Counted from the stretch's first letter, positions 2,606 to 14,767 are shown. The stretch is 64,000 nt of DNA from a virus (IMGVR_UViG_3300027740_000003:160001-224000); one strand, 5' to 3'. The notes: a model not told the origin generated them from the letters alone. Made by a program: numbers and translations.

Positions 2606-2727
2606 TATTCTATTATGCTTTTTAAACATTTAAAATTATATCCATTAACAGTAGGAATAAAATCATGATCTTTTTTAATATCAGGTGGTATTTTCGCAAT
2701 TAGCGCTGGCCATGTATTTTTTAACAT
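2605..2727 (-). CDS. IKDIIE-tail family, 40-aa internally deleted member (not in ORF track)
   Basis: MLKNTWPALIAKIPPDIKKDHDFIPTVNGYNFKCLKSIIE-stop; coupled upstream by TGATG and downstream by TAATG. Confidence 0.7.
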   Translation of the reverse strand: MLKNTWPALIAKIPPDIKKDHDFIPTVNGYNFKCLKSIIE

Positions 2728-2978
2728 CACTCTATTATGTTTTTTATTATTATTTCATCGCAAGAAAGTGTTTTACCATTTATTATTGAATAATAAATAT
2801 AATTATGCTGCGGATATATATGGCATATTAATCCACATTTTAAACATCTATATTTCGACAGAAACCCTTGTTTGTTTTGTCCTTTATATCCAAAATATAT
2901 ATCAACATTCTTTTCAAATACATAATTATGATCTTTAATTTGATCATCTGGAATTTTGTGAAACGCTTCCTCTTTCAT
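2727..2978 (-). CDS. IKDIIE-tail family, zinc-finger class
   Basis: KIPDDQIKDHNY...CLKC...LSCDEIIIKNIIE-stop. Confidence 0.8.
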   Translation of the reverse strand: MKEEAFHKIPDDQIKDHNYVFEKNVDIYFGYKGQNKQGFLSKYRCLKCGLICHIYPQHNYIYYSIINGKTLSCDEIIIKNIIE

Positions 2979-3262
2979 TCTATTATATCTTTTATTATTA
3001 TTTCACTACAAGTAAGCGTTTGTAATTCTTCTGATAAATATAGTCCATTTTTTTGACTAAAATCTAATCCATCAGAAAATTGATGATGAAATTTTCCAAA
3101 TATAATTTTGCATTCATCGGAATAAATTCTTAATATAATTTTACATTTAGAGCAAATATACCTCGAATAAAATAATTTATTTGTAGTTAGGTATACGTTC
3201 GAAACAAATGTATAATCATGATCTTTTTTAATTTCTTCCGGAATTTTAAATGCGGGGGTCAT
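2975..3262 (-). CDS. IKDIIE-tail family, zinc-finger class
   Basis: Likely start MTPAF at 3262; KIPEEIKKDHDY...CSKC...LTCSEIIIKDIIE-stop. Confidence 0.8.
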   Translation of the reverse strand: MTPAFKIPEEIKKDHDYTFVSNVYLTTNKLFYSRYICSKCKIILRIYSDECKIIFGKFHHQFSDGLDFSQKNGLYLSEELQTLTCSEIIIKDIIE

Positions 3263-3593
3263 ATATACCAAGCTTCCCCCAATATAACTCAGCCACACGA
3301 TATGTCAACCCCGGCGGTCCAAATTTGTTGTTCTCAATCGCTGCCATTCCATTGTTAACATAAATAACTACATCCGCAAATATTCTGTTATTTAATTCCG
3401 TAAAAGGTCGCATCACCATCACTCTTTCACTATGGTTCCTTACCCATGTAGGATATCCAGGATTACTTGCTACATATCCATCAAATGCATACCCGTCCAT
3501 TAGTTGGGTTATAAATAATTGTTTTCTCAACGTATCCCGAACCTGGTCAGGCACATTGTTGTTCATAAACACAATGGCACCAGGTAATGTCAT
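3246..3593 (-). CDS. Hypothetical protein
   Basis: 115-aa ORF, start coupled to the upstream stop (TAATG), normal composition. Confidence 0.7.
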   Translation of the reverse strand: MTLPGAIVFMNNNVPDQVRDTLRKQLFITQLMDGYAFDGYVASNPGYPTWVRNHSERVMVMRPFTELNNRIFADVVIYVNNGMAAIENNKFGPPGLTYRVAELYWGKLGIYDPRI

Positions 3594-4051
3594 TAAGAGC
3601 TCCCAATGTTTACATCGAATCCTTCAGAAAGATCATTTACATCCTCTACTTCTTCTTTCTTTGTTTTCTTTTCATATCGGCAAAGGTCATTAGTATCAGC
3701 ATTATAAGAATATCTTTTCCCATCCTTGATATAAGCAACATCGTCTTCGTCTGTTCCAATATTAACTTCGTCAGCTCCAGAGAAATCCATGTTCCTAAGA
3801 ATTTCATGGGCTTTCTTCATCTCTGCTCTGGTTAATGCTTCCCCTTCCTTATGCTCTTCAATAAAAGTTTGAAGTTTGTCTAATTGGCTCTGAGCATCTT
3901 TAAGCGATGTGGATAAAGAAGAATACTGTTTCTTGAGTTTATCAAGAAATTTCTCCACAGACTTTCTATTGTTTTTTCCCTTGAGCTTTTCAGTCTTTTC
4001 TGTTTTTGCAGCAAGCTTCTCTAAAAATCTTCTTCTAACCAATTTATTCAT
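3593..4051 (-). CDS. Hypothetical coiled-coil/acidic protein
   Basis: 152-aa charged ORF with helical heptad character. Confidence 0.7.
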   Translation of the reverse strand: MNKLVRRRFLEKLAAKTEKTEKLKGKNNRKSVEKFLDKLKKQYSSLSTSLKDAQSQLDKLQTFIEEHKEGEALTRAEMKKAHEILRNMDFSGADEVNIGTDEDDVAYIKDGKRYSYNADTNDLCRYEKKTKKEEVEDVNDLSEGFDVNIGSS

Positions 4052-4084
4052 CGATGCATCCTTTGGATAAGATATTCCAATATT

Positions 4085-4537
4085 ATGTCAGAATATAACC
4101 TGCCTGATTATGGCACAAACATACATGAATATATAAGAGATAAAATCCAAACTGCTATGCAAAAAATCATCGGCGAACCAATGAACAACCAGGCCTTGTC
4201 AGTATTAGAATATAATTGCAAAGAAATAATCAAAAGTTTACCTTTTACAGTTATTGATAGTGAGATAATAGTTAAACAAGACGAATTCGATACGACCAAA
4301 ATAAACTTTACATTTCCATTTATTTCAGAAATACTTGGATATATTTTATTTGATCCGAAAAATGACAATCATTATTGGGATTATTTGTCTGATACTAATG
4401 TTTATTTAAATTCAGGACATTATACTTCTTTCAAATGCAGAAAATGTGGATTAGAAATGATTATAAATAACGGATGGAAGCTTGCCAAACAGAATCTGAC
4501 TTGCGAAGAAATGGTAATAAAAGATATAATTGAATGA
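4085..4537 (+). CDS. IKDIIE-tail family, zinc-finger class with extra N-terminal domain
   Basis: DNHYW...CRKC...LTCEEMVIKDIIE-stop; ATGA overlap with the next gene. Confidence 0.8.
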   Translation: MSEYNLPDYGTNIHEYIRDKIQTAMQKIIGEPMNNQALSVLEYNCKEIIKSLPFTVIDSEIIVKQDEFDTTKINFTFPFISEILGYILFDPKNDNHYWDYLSDTNVYLNSGHYTSFKCRKCGLEMIINNGWKLAKQNLTCEEMVIKDIIE

Positions 4538-5157
4538 CCGCAACATCTTTAAGCAAACTACGAAGCCTTCCTTATCACGAAAGGATAAAATTTATCTTCC
4601 TTCAAAATAATTGGTTTGAAGAAACTTTGTATTTATTAAAAGATTATCCAAATTGGGACCACGATGAACTAGAAAAGAAATTGGCTATCGAAATAACATC
4701 ACATGAATGTGTTAATTTATTTAATGTTTGTGCTTTGTTAAAACACAGGGGTATAAATTTTGACAGAATGTTTTCTTACATTCTACAACACATTCCTATA
4801 TATCATCTTTCAGATTCTCTCTACGAACCCACCGTTATAATAGAGTGTATTGTTAAATCTGAGAAAATAAATTCTCTAAATGCATTTATTCGCTTTCTTT
4901 CTGAAAAAGAAAATGATGAAAGTTATTTTAATAATTTATTTTGTTATAATTCTATAGTAAATAACATCGATCATTTAATACATCAAAATAAAGAAAAATT
5001 TATTGATTTTAATACTATTATAGATGTGTGTTTGAAAAATTTAAATAAAGACCGCCGTGCCGCACACATTTTGTCCACATTATTAAAATTGCTGAAAAAC
5101 AAAGATTTAATTCAGAAAATAAAAGATAATTTGTTGATTTATGATATTATGACGTAA
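4534..5157 (+). CDS. Helical hypothetical protein with divergent tail
   Basis: Ends KIKDNLLIYDIMT-stop, alignable to the D(N/Q)LxIKDIIE tail. Confidence 0.7.
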   Translation: MTATSLSKLRSLPYHERIKFIFLQNNWFEETLYLLKDYPNWDHDELEKKLAIEITSHECVNLFNVCALLKHRGINFDRMFSYILQHIPIYHLSDSLYEPTVIIECIVKSEKINSLNAFIRFLSEKENDESYFNNLFCYNSIVNNIDHLIHQNKEKFIDFNTIIDVCLKNLNKDRRAAHILSTLLKLLKNKDLIQKIKDNLLIYDIMT

Positions 5158-7643: not shown

Positions 7644-7832
7644 TCAACCATTTTTATACCCATCCTTCGCCCAACCACTTCCTTTTAAATGAAATGGTGG
7701 GGCTCCTGATATTAATCTTTTAGCAGATTCTTTTCCACATTTTGGGCATATTTTAATGACAGGATCTGTAATCTTTTGATCTTCTTTCCATTCGTGTTTG
7801 CAATATTCACAGATGTAATCGTATTCTATCAT
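7644..7832 (-). CDS. FmdB-family zinc-ribbon protein
   Basis: YDYICEYCKHEW...CPKCG...RLIS...F.LKGSGWAKDGY. Confidence 0.85.
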   Translation of the reverse strand: MIEYDYICEYCKHEWKEDQKITDPVIKICPKCGKESAKRLISGAPPFHLKGSGWAKDGYKNG

Positions 7833-8752
7833 TTGAAAAACTCCATAGCATCAGCATATTTGAATCCACATCTAGAAGCAAAGGTTTTATCAGACGTCAT
7901 GTCTCCAACCATAATGCATTCTTTAGGATTTAGTTTATATTTCTCTACAAACTCTATCCCTATTCCAGGCATAGGTTTCCTCTTCCATGATATAATCGGA
8001 GGAACTTTAGATGTATCAAATTGATACTCTATATCTAACCCAATCAATTTATTAGTATGTTCAAAACAAGCAGTGGCAGCTTCTATTGTTAAATCTCCTT
8101 TTGCTACACCGCTTTGATTAGATGCTCCTAATAATTTGTATCCTTTTTCCAGGTATGATTTTAAAACCTCTGTTCTTCTTGGCAATAATTTTATTTGATC
8201 TGTGCTTGTTGGGAACATACCGTTTCCATTAACAATTTCTCTTAATGTTCCGTCATAGTCCAATATTAATGCTTTATTAACATATTCTGATTCCCATTTC
8301 CTAGTAAAGTTATTCTTAATTATTTCTGAAAATCCCTCGTTTATATTTGGTTTTTCAAATTCTTTGTTGGCTTTGAATAATACTGCCGGTGGAAATGTGT
8401 TTGGATCTTTTTCCTTTTTTAACTCTTCGGGAGTTAATACTTTGCCAAATTTAGAACACATTCTCCTACATGCATTAACTTGACAATCTTCTATACTGGT
8501 AGTTTGCCAGATACATTTAATTTCAACATTATATTTCTCAGCCAGATCAATAAAAGGTTTTCTATCTGAAACTTTAGTAAACAAATTATCTATAATAACA
8601 TCTTTTGATGAAGATATTAGAACTTCTAGTTTAGGCAGAAGATCAACAACTTTTCCGCCTACAAGATCTCTGTTAAGTCTTTCGTAGGTTGGATATTGGT
8701 TAGTTATTGTTGTTTTTCCTGAAGCTGGCAAACCACAAACAAGTAAAATCAT
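7829..8752 (-). CDS. Bifunctional polynucleotide kinase (AAA_33) / HAD phosphatase, Pnkp-like
   Basis: N-terminal GLPASGKT P-loop; C-terminal DYDGT, RKP and MVGD..SD HAD motifs. Confidence 0.85.
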   Translation of the reverse strand: MILLVCGLPASGKTTITNQYPTYERLNRDLVGGKVVDLLPKLEVLISSSKDVIIDNLFTKVSDRKPFIDLAEKYNVEIKCIWQTTSIEDCQVNACRRMCSKFGKVLTPEELKKEKDPNTFPPAVLFKANKEFEKPNINEGFSEIIKNNFTRKWESEYVNKALILDYDGTLREIVNGNGMFPTSTDQIKLLPRRTEVLKSYLEKGYKLLGASNQSGVAKGDLTIEAATACFEHTNKLIGLDIEYQFDTSKVPPIISWKRKPMPGIGIEFVEKYKLNPKECIMVGDMTSDKTFASRCGFKYADAMEFFK

Positions 8753-9039
8753 AGTATTAAATCCTTAATCATTACTTCATCACAACTTAGTAGATCGGTT
8801 GGTAAAATTGACTTTTTATCAAATATTAGCGAAGTTCCTGTCATAAAACATTTTTTGCATTTCCAGGACGCTTTATCGTAGCTATATTTTCCTCCAAAAT
8901 ATCTTTCCCATTCATGATCTAATATTTTAAATGGTTTTAACATTTTATTCCCATAACAATCACCAAATGTATAAGCTATTATTTCAGGATAAACAGCGCT
9001 TCGATAAATATATCTTTTTATTTTAACAATATTAACCAA
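8749..9039 (-). CDS. IKDIIE-tail family, zinc-finger class
   Basis: LDHEW...CKKC...LSCDEVMIKDLIL-stop. Confidence 0.75.
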   Translation of the reverse strand: MVNIVKIKRYIYRSAVYPEIIAYTFGDCYGNKMLKPFKILDHEWERYFGGKYSYDKASWKCKKCFMTGTSLIFDKKSILPTDLLSCDEVMIKDLIL

Positions 9040-9103
9040 TTTATATCCGGTTCTTTTTAGACCAAAATTAGTAATATATGAAAACTTCTTCTTCCTAACT
9101 GTT

Positions 9104-9412
9104 TTACCAGGTTTGATTAAATGAATTTGATTGTTCCATTTTTTTTATATTTTCTGGCAATAAATTCCATTCATATTTTTCATTATCAGTTAATTCTGAT
9201 TCTTTTATATGTTCTTTAAAATTGGTTAAAATCCTGTCATAAATTCCATCAATTTTATATTCTATAATTCTTTGGGCAAATTTTACTTTACTTAGGATAT
9301 AAATTAAATCATTGTAAAACTGATCAATTGTAGAGAATTCATCATTATACACGGGCAAATATTCTGGATCCACATATTCGTACTTATCATCAAAATAAAA
9401 AGATGAACTCAT
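9104..9412 (-). CDS. Hypothetical acidic protein
   Basis: 102-aa ORF coupled by ATGA to the upstream tail gene. Confidence 0.65.
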   Translation of the reverse strand: MSSSFYFDDKYEYVDPEYLPVYNDEFSTIDQFYNDLIYILSKVKFAQRIIEYKIDGIYDRILTNFKEHIKESELTDNEKYEWNLLPENIKKMEQSNSFNQTW

Positions 9413-9750
9413 TGGATAATATCCTTAATCATTACTTCATCAGCGGTCAATAATAACAACTCCGTTGATCCTTTAGAATTACCCCTGTATTTTGTTTTTA
9501 AATTTTTCTTATCTACATTTATATACATTACCGGGCTGTTCTCTGACATTTTTTGAGCTTCTAAACCGGTTTTGTTGCATCTAAATGTTCTGGGCCATGT
9601 CAATTGTTTTTGAGATCCGTCTTCTTCAAACTCTATCATTGTAATATCGAACCAGTCAAATGTTTTTGCACACTCTATAGCTTTTTCATAATCTTTATTT
9701 CTAATTGTTGGTTCAAATTTTTGTGATTTTGTTATTTGGAAAAATGCCAT
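9409..9750 (-). CDS. IKDIIE-tail family, degenerate zinc-finger class
   Basis: TFRCNKTG...LTADEVMIKDIIQ-stop; SD-like AAGGA upstream. Confidence 0.75.
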   Translation of the reverse strand: MAFFQITKSQKFEPTIRNKDYEKAIECAKTFDWFDITMIEFEEDGSQKQLTWPRTFRCNKTGLEAQKMSENSPVMYINVDKKNLKTKYRGNSKGSTELLLLTADEVMIKDIIQ

Positions 9751-9866
9751 ATCTAATCCTTTTTAAAAAATTGACGCAAATGATACTTCGTATCATTTGA
9801 TTATATATTGCATTTGATCCTTAGGATCTACTATTTGTATAGATCATAGTAGAGGATCAATAAGGA

Positions 9867-10037
9867 CTACTTTGCAATAGTCGTGCCAACATTTGGACGG
9901 CGAATATAAATTTCTAGGCCTAAAATTTTAATAAATGAATAATTCCCCATAATTTTTGTAAATTGGTTTCTTCTGAAGCAGAATAACCAATCTGTTGTGG
10001 GAAGCCAATTAAACCAAACGTTTCCTAGTTTTCTCAT
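9867..10037 (-). CDS. Small hypothetical protein (56 aa, not in track)
   Basis: MRKLGNVWFNWLPTTDWLFCFRRNQF...; ATGA overlap with the Thg1 stop. Confidence 0.5.
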   Translation of the reverse strand: MRKLGNVWFNWLPTTDWLFCFRRNQFTKIMGNYSFIKILGLEIYIRRPNVGTTIAK

Positions 10038-10786
10038 TTTTCATCTTGCTCCAAAGCTTTTTCAATTATTAAACTGTCCTCCGAGAAAATTGGAGTTTCC
10101 GAGCTGGCATAGATTTTACTTCTTATAGATCCAGAATCAGATGTTTCTTTTGCCCTACATAAACATATTCCAAGTTTTTCCCAATCTGATAATTTGTCCC
10201 AATCTATTCCTTTGTTTTTTAACATTAATTTCATCTCTTTACATGTTTTGTTCATTAGCTGCTTATGAGAGAAATTTGCTTGTGCTAGACTTGATACGCT
10301 ATTTCTTATCGTGTCAAGTTGCCTCCAATAATAATAATTCACCACATCTTCTCTTGGAACTACGAAGGCCCGGCAATCAAAGAGAGCGGGGTTCTTGGGA
10401 ACGCTTTTCCCACTGGCGAGGATGAATTCTAAAACAGCTTTGTTGAAGGCTGCTGTAGCGATACTGGCAGAGACTGAAACGACCTTAGACAGCTTACTGC
10501 CAAACCAGGGCTGGGTATTGAATTTCCGGTATGGATTTATTAAAATAGAGATCTCGTCAGATTGAGTATAAGCAAACTCAGCTCCGGATATTTGTTTAAT
10601 GAGAGCCGATGAGGTTTCAATCATTCCGTGTCGGATCGCAGGATCCCATGGTTTATCAAACTTTTTGGTATACGAAGAAAAATGGCAACCATCAACACGA
10701 ATAATAATTGGAGACCGGGGAACTAAAAATATTTCACTAGACAATTCATATTGTTTCATCCTTTTTCCCAAATTATTAAATTTCAT
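10034..10786 (-). CDS. thg1: tRNA-His guanylyltransferase Thg1-like 3'-5' polymerase
   Basis: RMKQYE, IIIRVDG..F, YTQSDEISIL, FDCRAF and YYWRQ.D motifs. Confidence 0.92.
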   Translation of the reverse strand: MKFNNLGKRMKQYELSSEIFLVPRSPIIIRVDGCHFSSYTKKFDKPWDPAIRHGMIETSSALIKQISGAEFAYTQSDEISILINPYRKFNTQPWFGSKLSKVVSVSASIATAAFNKAVLEFILASGKSVPKNPALFDCRAFVVPREDVVNYYYWRQLDTIRNSVSSLAQANFSHKQLMNKTCKEMKLMLKNKGIDWDKLSDWEKLGICLCRAKETSDSGSIRSKIYASSETPIFSEDSLIIEKALEQDEK

Positions 10787-10790
10787 ATAT

Positions 10791-11588
10791 TTAATTTATT
10801 TTTTTGTGGAAGGCTCTGTTGCAGATATAGCATTTGTATGCCTGTCTTGTTGCAACTTTATTATTGTAAGTTTTACCATTTTTAAAAGTTTTATTTAAAC
10901 AAAATTTGCACGGAACATTTTCTTTATCATTTAATAATTGATAATTTTTTCTCCAAATATCTGATTTTCTATCCATAAAATCAAATACAGGATCTATTAA
11001 ATCAACAAATTTTTTAACATTTTTTTTATTAGTAATATACAATATCGGTTGAAACTTGTTTTTACGATCTGTATACCCTAAAGATGTTTTTATATCAAAT
11101 TTTGACAGTTCTTTTTGCAGAATTTTTATATCATTTTCTGAAAATGAATGCGTAGATAGTTTTATTGAATAACGTCCTTTTTTGATAACAATTGATCCGT
11201 CATCTGCAAACCAAGTTGCTATTATTTCTGCATTTAAACACAAATCTTCAGGAATTGTCTTTTTGCCATTTTTATACCATTTTTTATGTAATGATGTAAA
11301 AAATCTATTACATTTTGTTCTTAACCTGATGTTATAATAAATTTTATTAGTTCTTTTGTCGAAAATAGCCCCTTCTGATACGGACTTTTCTGTAAGAAAA
11401 TTTATTAATTTATTTTTGCTAAAAAGAAGGTAATTTTTATCTTTTATTGCTCGGGTTAATTTTAAACAAGCATTTTTGCCAAATTTGTGTAGTTCAAGAT
11501 GTCCGTCTCCTAAAATTAACCCCAAAACATGATTCATTATATTCATAATTAAATGAAAAATTATTACCAGACATGTAATTATTTTCAT
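10791..11588 (-). mobile_element. Double-motif LAGLIDADG homing endonuclease with C-terminal zinc ribbon
   Basis: VLGLILGDGHL and IIATWFADDGSI motifs; CKFC...CYIC tail. Confidence 0.88.
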
Positions 11589-11604
11589 TGTGATGAAAAA
11601 TAGT

Positions 11605-11688
11605 TATAATTGGCATACGTGGAGTAAGACAAAATTGATAAGTTCCTTCGTAAGATTTCATCCTATTGCCAAGATCACTGTTTTCCAT
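11605..11688 (-). pseudogene. Orphan 5' fragment of a second thg1 allele
   Basis: MENSDLGNRMKSYEGTYQFCLTPRMPII is 14/28 identical to the N-terminus of 10034..10786, then similarity ends. Confidence 0.8.
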
Positions 11689-11978
11689 TATTCTATTATA
11701 TCCTTTATCATTAGTTCATCTTTGGTTATCAACACAGAGTTTTCTTTTATTTTATCTAAAACTTCGGGAAATTTATTATTGGACACACTAGCTATTATTT
11801 TGCTTGAACTGGTTGTTATTTTTCGTTTTGTTCTCTTGTTTTTTGGATATAAAATTTTAATTATATCATTTTTAACAAAAATAAACCCCCATATACAATC
11901 TTTGTATTGCAAATTACCAATTGTAAATGACCGTTTGGCTAAATAAAATTCTTCTCTCTCAATTTTGACAATATTCAT
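11688..11978 (-). CDS. IKDIIE-tail family, Cys-less member
   Basis: Likely start MNIVK at 11978 (ATGA overlap); ends LITKDELMIKDIIE-stop. Confidence 0.75.
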   Translation of the reverse strand: MNIVKIEREEFYLAKRSFTIGNLQYKDCIWGFIFVKNDIIKILYPKNKRTKRKITTSSSKIIASVSNNKFPEVLDKIKENSVLITKDELMIKDIIE

Positions 11979-12730
11979 TCTATTATATCTTTTATCATTA
12001 AATTGTCTATTATTTCTTCGGCAAATTCTTTCCAATCTGGACATAATAATATTATGTTTATATTATATCCAGATTGTTCTATTGCAGTTTTTTGAACTTC
12101 TTTAGGAGGGTTCTTTATAAATTGAATAGAATATGCATCTTGTTTAACTGCTTCTAATTTTATTTCTTTAGAAGGATTTTTTATAAATTGAATAGAATAT
12201 GCATTTTGTTTAATCGCTACTAATTGTACTTCTTTAGAAGGATTCTTTATAAATTGAATAGAATATGCATTTTCTTTAACAGCTGCTAGTTTTATTTCTT
12301 TAGAAGGGTTATTTATATATTGAATAGAATTTCCATTTTGTTTAACTGCTTCTAATTGTACTTCTTTAGAAGGGTTCTTTATAAACCTAATACGAAATCC
12401 GTCTTGTTTAACAGTCTCTAATTTTGTATTTTTTGTGGGTTTATTTATAAATTGAATATAACTTCCGTCTCTTTTAACCACTACCAGTTGTACTTTTTCT
12501 GTAGGATTTTCTATATACTTAATTGAAATTGGGTCTAGTTTAACAGCTTTTAATTGTATTTCTTCTGAAGGATTTTTTATATACCTAATTGAATATGAAT
12601 CTTGGTTAATAGTTTCTAACTGTACTTCCCTAGAAGGATTTTTTATATATTTAATGTAATCACTGTCAAAATCAATAAGTTTTCCTAAATGAGATGATAA
12701 TAAATCCTCAACTTTTTTAGCATGCGACAT
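11975..12730 (-). CDS. 22-aa repeat (DUF4116-like) solenoid protein with IKDIIE tail
   Basis: About 9 NPSxExQLxAVKQxxxSIxxIK units; ends IIDNLMIKDIIE-stop. Confidence 0.85.
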   Translation of the reverse strand: MSHAKKVEDLLSSHLGKLIDFDSDYIKYIKNPSREVQLETINQDSYSIRYIKNPSEEIQLKAVKLDPISIKYIENPTEKVQLVVVKRDGSYIQFINKPTKNTKLETVKQDGFRIRFIKNPSKEVQLEAVKQNGNSIQYINNPSKEIKLAAVKENAYSIQFIKNPSKEVQLVAIKQNAYSIQFIKNPSKEIKLEAVKQDAYSIQFIKNPPKEVQKTAIEQSGYNINIILLCPDWKEFAEEIIDNLMIKDIIE

Positions 12731-14767
12731 TTATACATCCTCCACAGATTCATCATATCCAAGCAATTTGTCTTTAGACTTGGCGCCAAATTTATCTACA
12801 ATTATCTTTTGCCATTTTGTCTGTTCAATAATCGCCGAAGCTTCACCTTTTGTTATATTTGTTATATCTAAATCAAATTTTATTTTCCCAGCAAACATTA
12901 GATTCTCAATAAACTTCTTTTGAGAATCACTTGCTAATGTCTTCTTCCATTTAGCGTCTCCCCTAACCAAAGGCAATACTCCAGCTTTCCTAGCCGATTC
13001 TACAATATAACTTTTAGCATCTTGCTTTGTTAACCTGTCATCTTTCAATACAACAAGATCATTCTTAACCTTGGTCATTTCTACAATACGACCTTTGTCG
13101 GTAGTAGTTGGAAAACACAAATAGAATATCCTGTCCACTTTCTTTTTATCTTTTTGTTCAGATATCTCTTGGAACTCATGTTTTACTTTAAGATCAGATA
13201 TTGATACAAATTCCTTCCTTCCAGACATCCATCCGTCAGAATTAAATTCTACTTTTACTTCTAATCCCAGTCCAATATCAACAATTTTCCCTTCGCCAAA
13301 CGTATCATGCATAACATTAATAGGATATTGTTTTACAGCACTTATTGTTGGTTTAATTGTTAGCGGTTTCCACGTTGATTTGTCAATTATTTTATCCAAC
13401 AACTGTTCTTCGGTCCACGTAATAAGCCTTTGATCATTTGCAACAACCCATGAGGTTATCTGCATAAAATCGTCATCTGTAGTCCATCGGTCTTGGTCTT
13501 GATGAATCATAAATACGGGGAAATTGATAAGCTTTTCTGCAATATGGTCATTGGTTGGGTTTTTGCCAGTACCAGATCCTTGCAGCTCTTTCCAAGTTGG
13601 AAGATTTGCTGTTAAGATATTATTGGCTCGTTTCTTTTCTCCATACATATCACCATGTTGAGCCATATCCTCAAATGTGATACGAGATTGTTTTACTTTA
13701 AGCTTATCGTATACATCAACTATAATAGCATCAGTTTTGCCTGGATATTTTCGCAATGGCCGTCCAGCCATTTGAAGATAAAGCCCAAGGCTTCTTGTTG
13801 GTCTAGCAATAGTTGCAAAGCTTAAATGTGGAACATTCCAACCTTCCGTGCAAACCAAATTATTAACGAAGCAATCTATTTCACCGCCTCTAACTTTTTC
13901 CATAAAATATCTTCTTTGTTCTTTTGGCGTATCTCCATAAACCTCAGCCGCTCTAATGTCATTTTTTAATAATTCATACATATCATGAGAATGAGCAACA
14001 TCAACACCAAATAATATCCCCTGTCTTTTTTGGTCTTTAACTAGCTCTATAATGCGCTTTGCAATTAATTTATTTCTTTCTTCGGTATTTACTGTTTGAG
14101 ACAGTTCTTTTGTGGCAAAATCTCCCATTTGTGTTTTAACATTGGCTAAAGATACATTAGATTTTAATATTTCTGGAACTGCTGCAATTAGATATCCATG
14201 TGATATAGCTGTTCCTATATCCATTTCTAATAAAACTTCTCCTAGAGGCAGTTCATCACCAGAAAACCTCCAAGGGGTAGCTGTAAGTCCAAGAATTTTT
14301 GTTCTGGGAAACCAATCTTTTAAATTTTGATATGTTTTATTTTTCTCAGAAAAATGATGATATTCATCTATAATTATTAGATCTGGTTTGAATCCTTTTA
14401 AATGAGATCTTCTTCCGGCTAATGTCTGAACAGACCCAACAATAATATCGCTATTATTATCGGCTTTAAATTCTGCCATTTCTTTTGATAATTTTTGTGT
14501 CCATGATACTGTTTCTGACAAACAATCATTAGCCTGATCAATAAGCTCCTCCCTATGGGCAACCCAAAGAATTTTTAAACCACTAATTTTATCAATGCAC
14601 AATGATGCGGATTTGGTTTTTCCAGTGCCACAAGGAAGAATGATTGTGGCCAATTTCCCATCAGTATTAATCCATTTCTCAAAATTTTCAACAATCCTTT
14701 CTTGATATCTTCTTTTCTCAAATTGAATCATTAATTCACCATTTGAACCTTGGTATACCAGGAACAA
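12731..14767 (-). CDS. SF2 (ResIII/DEAD-like) helicase
   Basis: LPCGTGKT, DEYHH, GLTATP, TEGWNVP and QMAGRPLR motifs. Confidence 0.9.
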   Translation of the reverse strand: MFLVYQGSNGELMIQFEKRRYQERIVENFEKWINTDGKLATIILPCGTGKTKSASLCIDKISGLKILWVAHREELIDQANDCLSETVSWTQKLSKEMAEFKADNNSDIIVGSVQTLAGRRSHLKGFKPDLIIIDEYHHFSEKNKTYQNLKDWFPRTKILGLTATPWRFSGDELPLGEVLLEMDIGTAISHGYLIAAVPEILKSNVSLANVKTQMGDFATKELSQTVNTEERNKLIAKRIIELVKDQKRQGILFGVDVAHSHDMYELLKNDIRAAEVYGDTPKEQRRYFMEKVRGGEIDCFVNNLVCTEGWNVPHLSFATIARPTRSLGLYLQMAGRPLRKYPGKTDAIIVDVYDKLKVKQSRITFEDMAQHGDMYGEKKRANNILTANLPTWKELQGSGTGKNPTNDHIAEKLINFPVFMIHQDQDRWTTDDDFMQITSWVVANDQRLITWTEEQLLDKIIDKSTWKPLTIKPTISAVKQYPINVMHDTFGEGKIVDIGLGLEVKVEFNSDGWMSGRKEFVSISDLKVKHEFQEISEQKDKKKVDRIFYLCFPTTTDKGRIVEMTKVKNDLVVLKDDRLTKQDAKSYIVESARKAGVLPLVRGDAKWKKTLASDSQKKFIENLMFAGKIKFDLDITNITKGEASAIIEQTKWQKIIVDKFGAKSKDKLLGYDESVEDV

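Follow-up and report, generated by a model that had tools for sequence, protein, structure and literature searches.

Architecture of the interrupted thg1 locus

How does a phage keep an intact thg1, a gene for tRNA repair, when a homing endonuclease gene lies within the coding region of that gene? This question is raised by a locus on the minus strand of a 64,000-nucleotide stretch of viral DNA, hereafter the window, which corresponds to bases 160001–224000 of the IMG/VR record IMGVR_UViG_3300027740_000003, a 435,004-bp soil phage genome graded as complete. Here, a gene encoding a LAGLIDADG homing endonuclease is situated between a 28-codon start fragment of thg1 (the stub) and a complete thg1 gene. 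The explanation that we regard as probable is that the homing gene travels with a phage thg1 5' end: the enzyme would cut an uninterrupted thg1 at about codon 28/29, and the repair of the break would bring in a start resistant to cleavage.

An initial annotation of the window had proposed the order of stub, LAGLIDADG gene, 4 nt and complete thg1, and all of these elements were confirmed at their positions (Table 1). The stub belongs to an open reading frame (ORF) of 64 amino acids (aa) located at 11688..11494 on the minus strand, whose likeness to Thg1 is limited to the first 28 codons and is out of frame afterwards. It ends at P26-I27-I28 (...CCA ATT ATA), immediately 5' of the catalytic I/L-R-x-D-G motif, as had been claimed. 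Alignment also bore out the claim that the fragment and the complete gene have different N-termini, with identity at 14 of 28 residues and at 50 of 84 nt. Since the stop codon of the upstream 118-aa ORF overlaps the ATG of the stub, the native thg1 start was translationally coupled to that ORF.

The working thg1 is complete (250 aa, 10786..10034 on the minus strand) and matches the Pfam family Thg1 (PF04446) with an E value of 6.6e-32 and 110.6 bits over profile positions 2–130 of 130. Its catalytic residues D32 and G33 (RxDG) and D77 and E78 (SDE) are invariant columns in the alignment. Two complete, independent thg1 genes, the outcome that the initial annotation had set against its own reading, were not seen: the 435-kb genome has a single thg1, and this endonuclease gene likewise occurs once.

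Table 1. Features of the thg1 locus in their order along the minus strand, with positions counted from the first base of the window. GC, G+C content.
Feature	Coordinates	Strand	Evidence
Upstream 118-aa ORF	12044..11688	-	Stop overlaps the ATG of the remnant (TAATG); sequence
Native thg1 5' remnant (stub), codons 1–28	11688..11605	-	N-terminal Thg1 profile, 51.4 bits, E 1.3e-13; GC 34.5%
AT-rich spacer of 58 nt (19% GC) at the left edge of the insert	11604..11547	-	Without thg1 similarity and without RNA-family match
Free-standing LAGLIDADG homing endonuclease gene, I-SceI-like, double-motif, 251 aa from M15	11546..10791	-	Pfam LAGLIDADG_2; GC 25.4%
First LAGLIDADG motif, LGLILGDGH	11525..11499	-	G27-D28-G29 invariant among homologues
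Second LAGLIDADG motif, ATWFADDGS	11219..11193	-	D129-D130-G131 invariant among homologues
C-terminal CxxC...CxxC zinc ribbon, IS1 InsA-like (C227, C230, C253, C256)	10910..10821	-	Cys columns invariant or nearly so
4-nt gap (ATAT) from the endonuclease TAA (10793..10791) to the thg1 ATG (10786)	10790..10787	-	Sequence
Replacement 5' end of thg1, of foreign origin, reaching to codon ~31–39, with recoded site LVPRSPIIIRVDG	10786..10670	-	Drop in identity to P0002; GC 28–30%
Native-lineage thg1 body, codons 40–250, SDE catalytic motif intact	10669..10034	-	84% identical to P0002; GC 39.2%; Pfam Thg1

Origin of the two thg1 starts

The alignment to endonuclease-free relatives that the initial annotation had proposed was run at the protein level, and it points to the stub as native and to the working start as foreign. 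The closest homologues form a cluster consisting of P0002 (80% identical) and P0172–P0174, which derive from four separate contigs of ENA and the Joint Genome Institute (JGI) and encode an uninterrupted Thg1 of 250 aa; the site occupied in the window is thus polymorphic for presence and absence of the insert among relatives. P0002 is by far the best match of the stub among 119 homologues (score 117, the next being 92), with 22 of 28 residues identical (79%). When compared with the working gene, the same protein agrees at 15 of the first 29 residues and at 183 of 219 (84%) over residues 32–250, a difference with a Fisher p of ~5e-4. As the stub is about as close to P0002 as the thg1 body is, stub and body belong together, and codons 1 to ~31–39 of the working gene have another source. 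These comparisons indicate that the stub is the native thg1 start and that the first ~31–39 codons of the working gene are foreign.

The maximum-likelihood breakpoint of this chimera lies at codon 31, and the last clustered differences from P0002 are found at codons 37–38. Around the break, residues 22, 25, 29 and 31 of the new allele are not those of the P0002 type. The G+C content rises stepwise from the endonuclease gene through the new 5' end and the stub to the thg1 body (Table 1). In a search with the 39-aa new start as the query, P0162 was found to carry the same unusual LVPRSP-IIRVDG site, and the short matches were truncations at other positions rather than stubs. When IMG/VR was scanned with single proteins as queries, close relatives were absent for the window Thg1 and for the endonuclease, the corresponding scan with P0002 returned relatives at no more than 55% identity, and blastn against GenBank phages gave DUF4116 repeats as the sole matches.

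A recurrent breakpoint within thg1

A second stub was identified in an unrelated phage (locus L156), where the order along the minus strand is a thg1 stub of 28 codons, an ORF for a membrane protein of 283 aa, an antisense endonuclease gene and then a complete thg1. The L156 stub ends with ...CCA GTT GTG (P26-V27-V28), which is the same alignment column as P26-I27-I28 in the window. The endonucleases of the two loci are 29% identical and their Thg1 proteins 40%, and both the cargo and the orientation of the endonuclease gene differ; therefore, they represent independent events. If breakpoints were uniform over 250 codons, the chance of a one-codon coincidence is estimated at about 1/250. The ORF between the L156 stub and endonuclease gene (3943–4794, minus strand) encodes a predicted membrane protein, and this cargo may have been co-mobilised.

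A third case is provided by L003, a complete 90.7-kb phage of high G+C content in which thg1 is absent genome-wide. At positions 2690–3816 it contains a stub of 24–28 codons (...LTPNSP-DGRA-stop), followed 2 nt on by a related 345-aa endonuclease gene. The alignment suggests that this stub is without codons 27–31, and its end lies within a few codons of the breakpoint in the window and L156; the thg1 gene of this phage was apparently destroyed by the invasion. The L003 endonuclease has an extra N-terminal helix-turn-helix-like region, and genes for tRNA-Trp, tRNA-Tyr and tRNA-Ser are located ~650 nt downstream.

The endonuclease-linked thg1 of L114 (1102–1260) carries one additional T (CTT T GAC) at codon 31/32, so that the gene is split into two frames at the RLDG motif; this could be either the scar of an error-prone repair at the presumed cut site or a homopolymer sequencing error. 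Lesions in endonuclease-linked loci are thus concentrated at codons 27–32. Two further loci with weak matches to the N-terminal profile, L092 and L136, were rejected as stubs on inspection, the latter being a mitochondrial cox1 region.

Linkage of the endonuclease and thg1 across metagenomes

Loci with relatives of the endonuclease (79 from IMG/VR and 80 from JGI metagenomes) were scanned with purpose-built Thg1 and endonuclease profiles. In at least 17 metagenomic loci, the endonuclease gene has a complete thg1 as its immediate neighbour. The two genes share a strand, with thg1 0–40 nt past the endonuclease ORF, in L090, L106, L108–L112, L114, L123, L129, L130 and L134, and they are arranged head-to-head in L083, L104, L150 and L156. 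In the endonuclease tree, the thg1-linked members fall into two clades, one of which is nearly all thg1-linked; the second is the zinc-ribbon clade of the window, some members of which lie at other genes. When the search started instead from thg1, none of the best 80 IMG/VR loci by similarity to the window gene had this endonuclease or a stub.

Decay of the element is seen in a pair of siblings. L167 contains a 1.25-kb insert (2690–3938) in which the endonuclease gene, divergent from thg1 and ~60 nt upstream of its start, has decayed into six frame pieces, and in its sibling L166 (78% identical) the site is empty (3473–3506). This presence/absence polymorphism represents the usual cycle of invasion and decay.

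Furthermore, in most endonuclease-linked Thg1 proteins the family-profile score of the N-terminal 39 residues falls below the value predicted from the remainder of the protein (z -1.6 to -3.7). The divergence is significant over all linked genes (Mann-Whitney p = 0.0017) and with one gene per lineage (p = 0.017). Such atypical N-termini would be expected for recoded, resistant sites and lend supportive evidence for them.

In the linked Thg1 of L123, L129, L130 and L134 (thg1 at ~3750–4600), RLDM-RAGH stands in place of the invariant RxDG-xxF, so that the active-site glycine is replaced, and in L090 and L109–L111 TY or VY replaces the conserved MP two codons upstream. Both sets of substitutions may represent resistance changes at the protein level. 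Members of the same endonuclease clade were also noticed, by eye, next to release-factor-like ORFs (L099, L105), a ligase-like ORF containing a KxDG motif (L103) and a P-loop kinase-like ORF (L004), all of them resembling translation or RNA-repair genes, and the family may specialise in phage genes accessory to tRNA and translation.

The insert is neither an intron nor an intein

LAGLIDADG genes are mostly borne by introns or inteins, and a location of the window gene in a group I intron or an intein, with the stub as a true first exon or extein, would follow this habit. Moreover, a distant relative of the endonuclease in Bacillus phage phiNIT1 interrupts a DNA polymerase gene. Against such an arrangement, the non-coding DNA around the endonuclease gene amounts to 58 nt plus 4 nt, and covariance models of Rfam gave zero matches at E<=1 over positions 9000–13000, in agreement with the earlier statement that a group I intron would have no room here. 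In addition, the endonuclease gene and the stub are in different frames, and Pfam detected LAGLIDADG families alone in the endonuclease gene, the intein domain being absent. Finally, the downstream thg1 has its own ATG and a whole N-terminus, and splicing would therefore duplicate residues 1–28. We conclude that intron and intein are both absent and that the endonuclease gene is free-standing; the chance that the stub is an exon or extein is negligible.

The endonuclease is related to I-SceI

The endonuclease ORF is open from position 11588, and its probable true start, supported by 14 homologues and the gene caller, is M15 at 11546. The protein matches Pfam LAGLIDADG_2 (PF03161) with 96.5 bits, the cut-off being 25, and an E value of 2.2e-27. 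Of 34 homologues collected, 15 were compared at the catalytic acids D28 (LGLILGDG) and D130 (TWFADDG), which are invariant among them. A structural model produced with AlphaFold2 (AF2; mean predicted local distance difference test score, pLDDT, 92.7) exhibits a tandem alpha-beta-beta-alpha-beta-beta-alpha fold. Its top Foldseek matches are I-WcaI (6x1j, E 6e-13) and I-SceI (1r7m, E 2.5e-11), with a root-mean-square deviation (rmsd) of 2.2–2.4 Å and template modelling (TM) scores of 0.72–0.75 relative to the targets. This likeness came from the fold search, phmmer against the PDB sequences having given no match; tblastn against GenBank phages yielded only distant matches, and these, for example the one in the phiNIT1 DNA polymerase, lie in contexts with no relation to the window locus. 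On the basis of the model, the protein is apparently an intact, monomeric enzyme of the I-SceI type. Enzymes of this type cleave a specific target of 18–22 bp, and the breakpoints at thg1 codon 28/29 mark the putative target here. The IS1 InsA zinc-ribbon family PF03811 is present in two of the homologues, P0126 and P0151, and the C-terminal zinc ribbon of the window protein is probably an extra DNA-binding module.

Proposed mechanism and alternative explanations

The anatomy of the locus, the chimeric thg1, the native stub, the family-wide linkage and the recurrent breakpoint are the observations from which a course of events can be proposed. From these sequences we infer where the enzyme would cut, how the break would be repaired and that the new allele would be resistant. 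The cut would fall at about codon 28/29 of a thg1 that lacks the endonuclease gene, just ahead of the conserved RxDG codons, and the break would be repaired from an endonuclease-bearing genome. The downstream end of the break would pair with the donor thg1, the crossover being resolved ~3–11 codons from the cut, and repair synthesis would copy the endonuclease gene together with the recoded codons 1–28 (or slightly more) of the donor thg1. The upstream end, at codon 28, would either join illegitimately, without upstream homology, or use an older stub as a homology arm. The product would consist of the native codons 1–28 as a dead stub, the spacer, the endonuclease gene and an intact, chimeric and presumably cleavage-resistant thg1. 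After such an insertion, the native coupling of thg1 to the upstream ORF would be lost, and the gene, 4 nt behind the endonuclease gene, would probably be co-expressed with it. Illegitimate joining of the left end would account for the variable donor-side junction; the recipient-side junction stays fixed. In the window, the donor-side junction lies 58 nt before the endonuclease gene; in L156 it is found past an additional gene, and in L003 it coincides with the start of the endonuclease gene. The initial annotation had already suggested an intron-less unit, composed of the endonuclease gene and a new thg1 5' end, that repairs the gene it invades, and the chimerism and the L156 recurrence argue for this suggestion.

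Several points weigh against this proposal. The L156 stub is 93% identical in DNA to the new start of that locus, so that a foreign start is not evident there. The crossover in the window was located from protein comparison alone, and for the donor of the new start the best match among 1.84 billion representatives reached 64% identity with the 39-aa query. The closest relative of the endonuclease (L082, 45%) is not adjacent to thg1. The profiles used to score the N-terminal divergence of linked Thg1 had been trained on sequences related to the window gene, and few lineages are involved, so that the significance of this divergence is to be read as supportive only. Moreover, a stub is kept in just 3 of ~19 endonuclease-linked thg1 loci. 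As most linked loci are without one, the stub may be dispensable and not an obligatory part of the element, or it is perhaps rapidly lost.

Among the other explanations, displacement of the whole gene has the most to recommend it. The endonuclease gene would have arrived with a complete, already chimeric thg1 from a P0002-like donor, and the native codons 29–250 would have been deleted, so that this genome would have seen no crossover within thg1. The chimerism is seen relative to P0002 and may have arisen earlier, and units of endonuclease gene and thg1 nearly without spacer are common. However, the body of the donor would have to be as near to P0002 as the stub is (84% and 79%, respectively), and a precise deletion would be needed in addition, whereas the end of the stub at a recurrent codon is more simply explained by a break there; we therefore consider this course improbable. 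Still less probable is an origin of both starts within the locus, in which the 5' end of thg1 would have been duplicated in tandem on either side of an inserted endonuclease gene, without any foreign DNA, and one copy would have diverged. The L156 copies, whose identity extends over ~20 nt of leader, would suit such an event. In the window, however, it is the dead stub that is near P0002 and the functional copy that is divergent, the opposite of what decay would be expected to produce; the two copies agree in so few nucleotides as given above, and the G+C content of the new copy is that of the endonuclease gene.

An artefact of assembly, in which endonuclease-free and endonuclease-bearing haplotypes were merged, also has to be weighed, given that the genome is a metagenome-assembled virus record. 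The same architecture and breakpoint codon were recovered in the independent assembly of the unrelated L156 phage, a similar arrangement occurs in L003, and the junction in the window is without any shared repeat that could mislead an assembler, which leaves very little likelihood for a chimera of this kind.

Within the proposed mechanism of cleavage and repair with a resistant start, a more specific idea concerns the role of the stub. It might provide upstream homology for an 'insert-and-rescue' cassette that is self-contained, needs no splicing and comprises the stub as homology arm, the endonuclease gene and the resistant thg1 start, an idea that we put forward tentatively and hold to be less likely than not. 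If it were true, the cassette could home into any thg1 whatever the neighbouring genes, which would explain the presence of two LAGLIDADG clades in unrelated phages with a fixed insertion at codon 28/29, and the element would be a phage counterpart, acting on gene starts, of the yeast WHO elements.

Relation to known mobile elements

The closest parallels are the mobile ORFs (mORFs) of fungal mitochondria that generate gene hybrids, described for atp6 of Allomyces macrogynus and for atp6, atp9, cox2 and nad3 of Glomus (PMC3630166). As in the window, a conserved gene has received an endonuclease gene (LAGLIDADG, or GIY-YIG in mORFs) along with a second, foreign copy of one gene end, splicing is absent, and the native end is stranded, unexpressed, beyond the endonuclease gene and is nearer to endonuclease-free relatives than the inserted copy is (PMC3630166). 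The mORFs differ in that it is the 3' end which they exchange and in that their reading frame often continues that of the host gene, whereas the window insert replaces the 5' end, including the start codon, so that thg1 expression now depends on the insert. Besides, the host is a bacteriophage instead of a mitochondrion and the target is thg1.

Another parallel is offered by the WHO elements of Torulaspora and Lachancea yeasts, which target FBA1 (Coughlan et al. 2020, PMC7282813). A LAGLIDADG-type nuclease with a zinc-finger domain cuts a conserved housekeeping gene, and homing swaps one gene end for a resistant version, with the old end displaced as a fragment, which results in a chimera with discordant ends (PMC7282813). 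WHO proteins are derived from inteins and the 3' end is replaced, whereas the window enzyme is I-SceI-like with an InsA-type zinc ribbon and acts at the 5' end. The WHO model gives the fragment an indispensable role as a homology arm and has clusters accumulating, in contrast to the one stub of the window and the stubless state of most related loci. Cleavage has been demonstrated for WHO6 (PMC7282813), whereas cutting by the window enzyme is deduced from sequence.

Free-standing phage endonucleases are known from 'intronless homing' in T4-like phages and cyanophages, including SegB, SegF, SegG, MobE and F-CphI (PMC2988022, PMC2330249, PMC2790892). Their genes likewise lie between genes, adjoining the presumed target, and show presence/absence polymorphism among relatives; in the T4-like phages and cyanophages they spread by double-strand-break repair with co-conversion of flanking markers. 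Those enzymes belong to the GIY-YIG, HNH or EndoVII-like types, in contrast to the LAGLIDADG enzyme of the window. To our knowledge, enzymes of the Seg, Mob and F-CphI type integrate via homologous sequence to either side, without a gene start being left stranded.

A literature search covering part of the journals found no link between Thg1 and homing endonucleases and no phage cassette that replaces a 5' end. If the proposed mechanism is right, useful phage genes can be invaded within their coding region by a homing endonuclease that depends on no intron or intein and instead brings a replacement start, and a strategy known for 3' ends in fungal mitochondria and yeast nuclei would extend to 5' ends in bacteriophages. 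The association of I-SceI-like LAGLIDADG enzymes, several of them with a zinc ribbon, with phage thg1 is a widespread and previously unreported link that supplies a precisely placed candidate target in the codons that directly precede the RxDG active site, and could explain the mosaic 5' ends of phage thg1 genes. For annotators, short 'orphan' gene starts are to be expected beside endonuclease genes, and the endonucleases themselves are candidates for new rare-cutting specificities.

Genomic setting

The G+C content of the window is ~32%. A polynucleotide kinase/phosphatase-like gene (7829..8752, minus strand), encoding a 307-aa fusion of an AAA_33 kinase and a HAD/PNK3P phosphatase (Pnkp-like), is located 1.3 kb downstream of thg1, and tRNA genes are found at positions 988–2113; thg1 is thus placed in a neighbourhood of tRNA and RNA-repair genes. 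Together, the Pnkp-like gene and the tRNA cluster suggest an RNA-repair module. A scan for promoters and terminators gave no signal beyond the expectation from shuffled sequence. Several otherwise unrelated small ORFs on the minus strand (8749..9039, 9409..9750, 11688..12044 and 11975..12730) share a C-terminal tail, (D/E)(E/N)(V/L)MIKD(I/L)I(E/Q/L), and each small ORF with this MIKD-type tail overlaps the start of the next gene.

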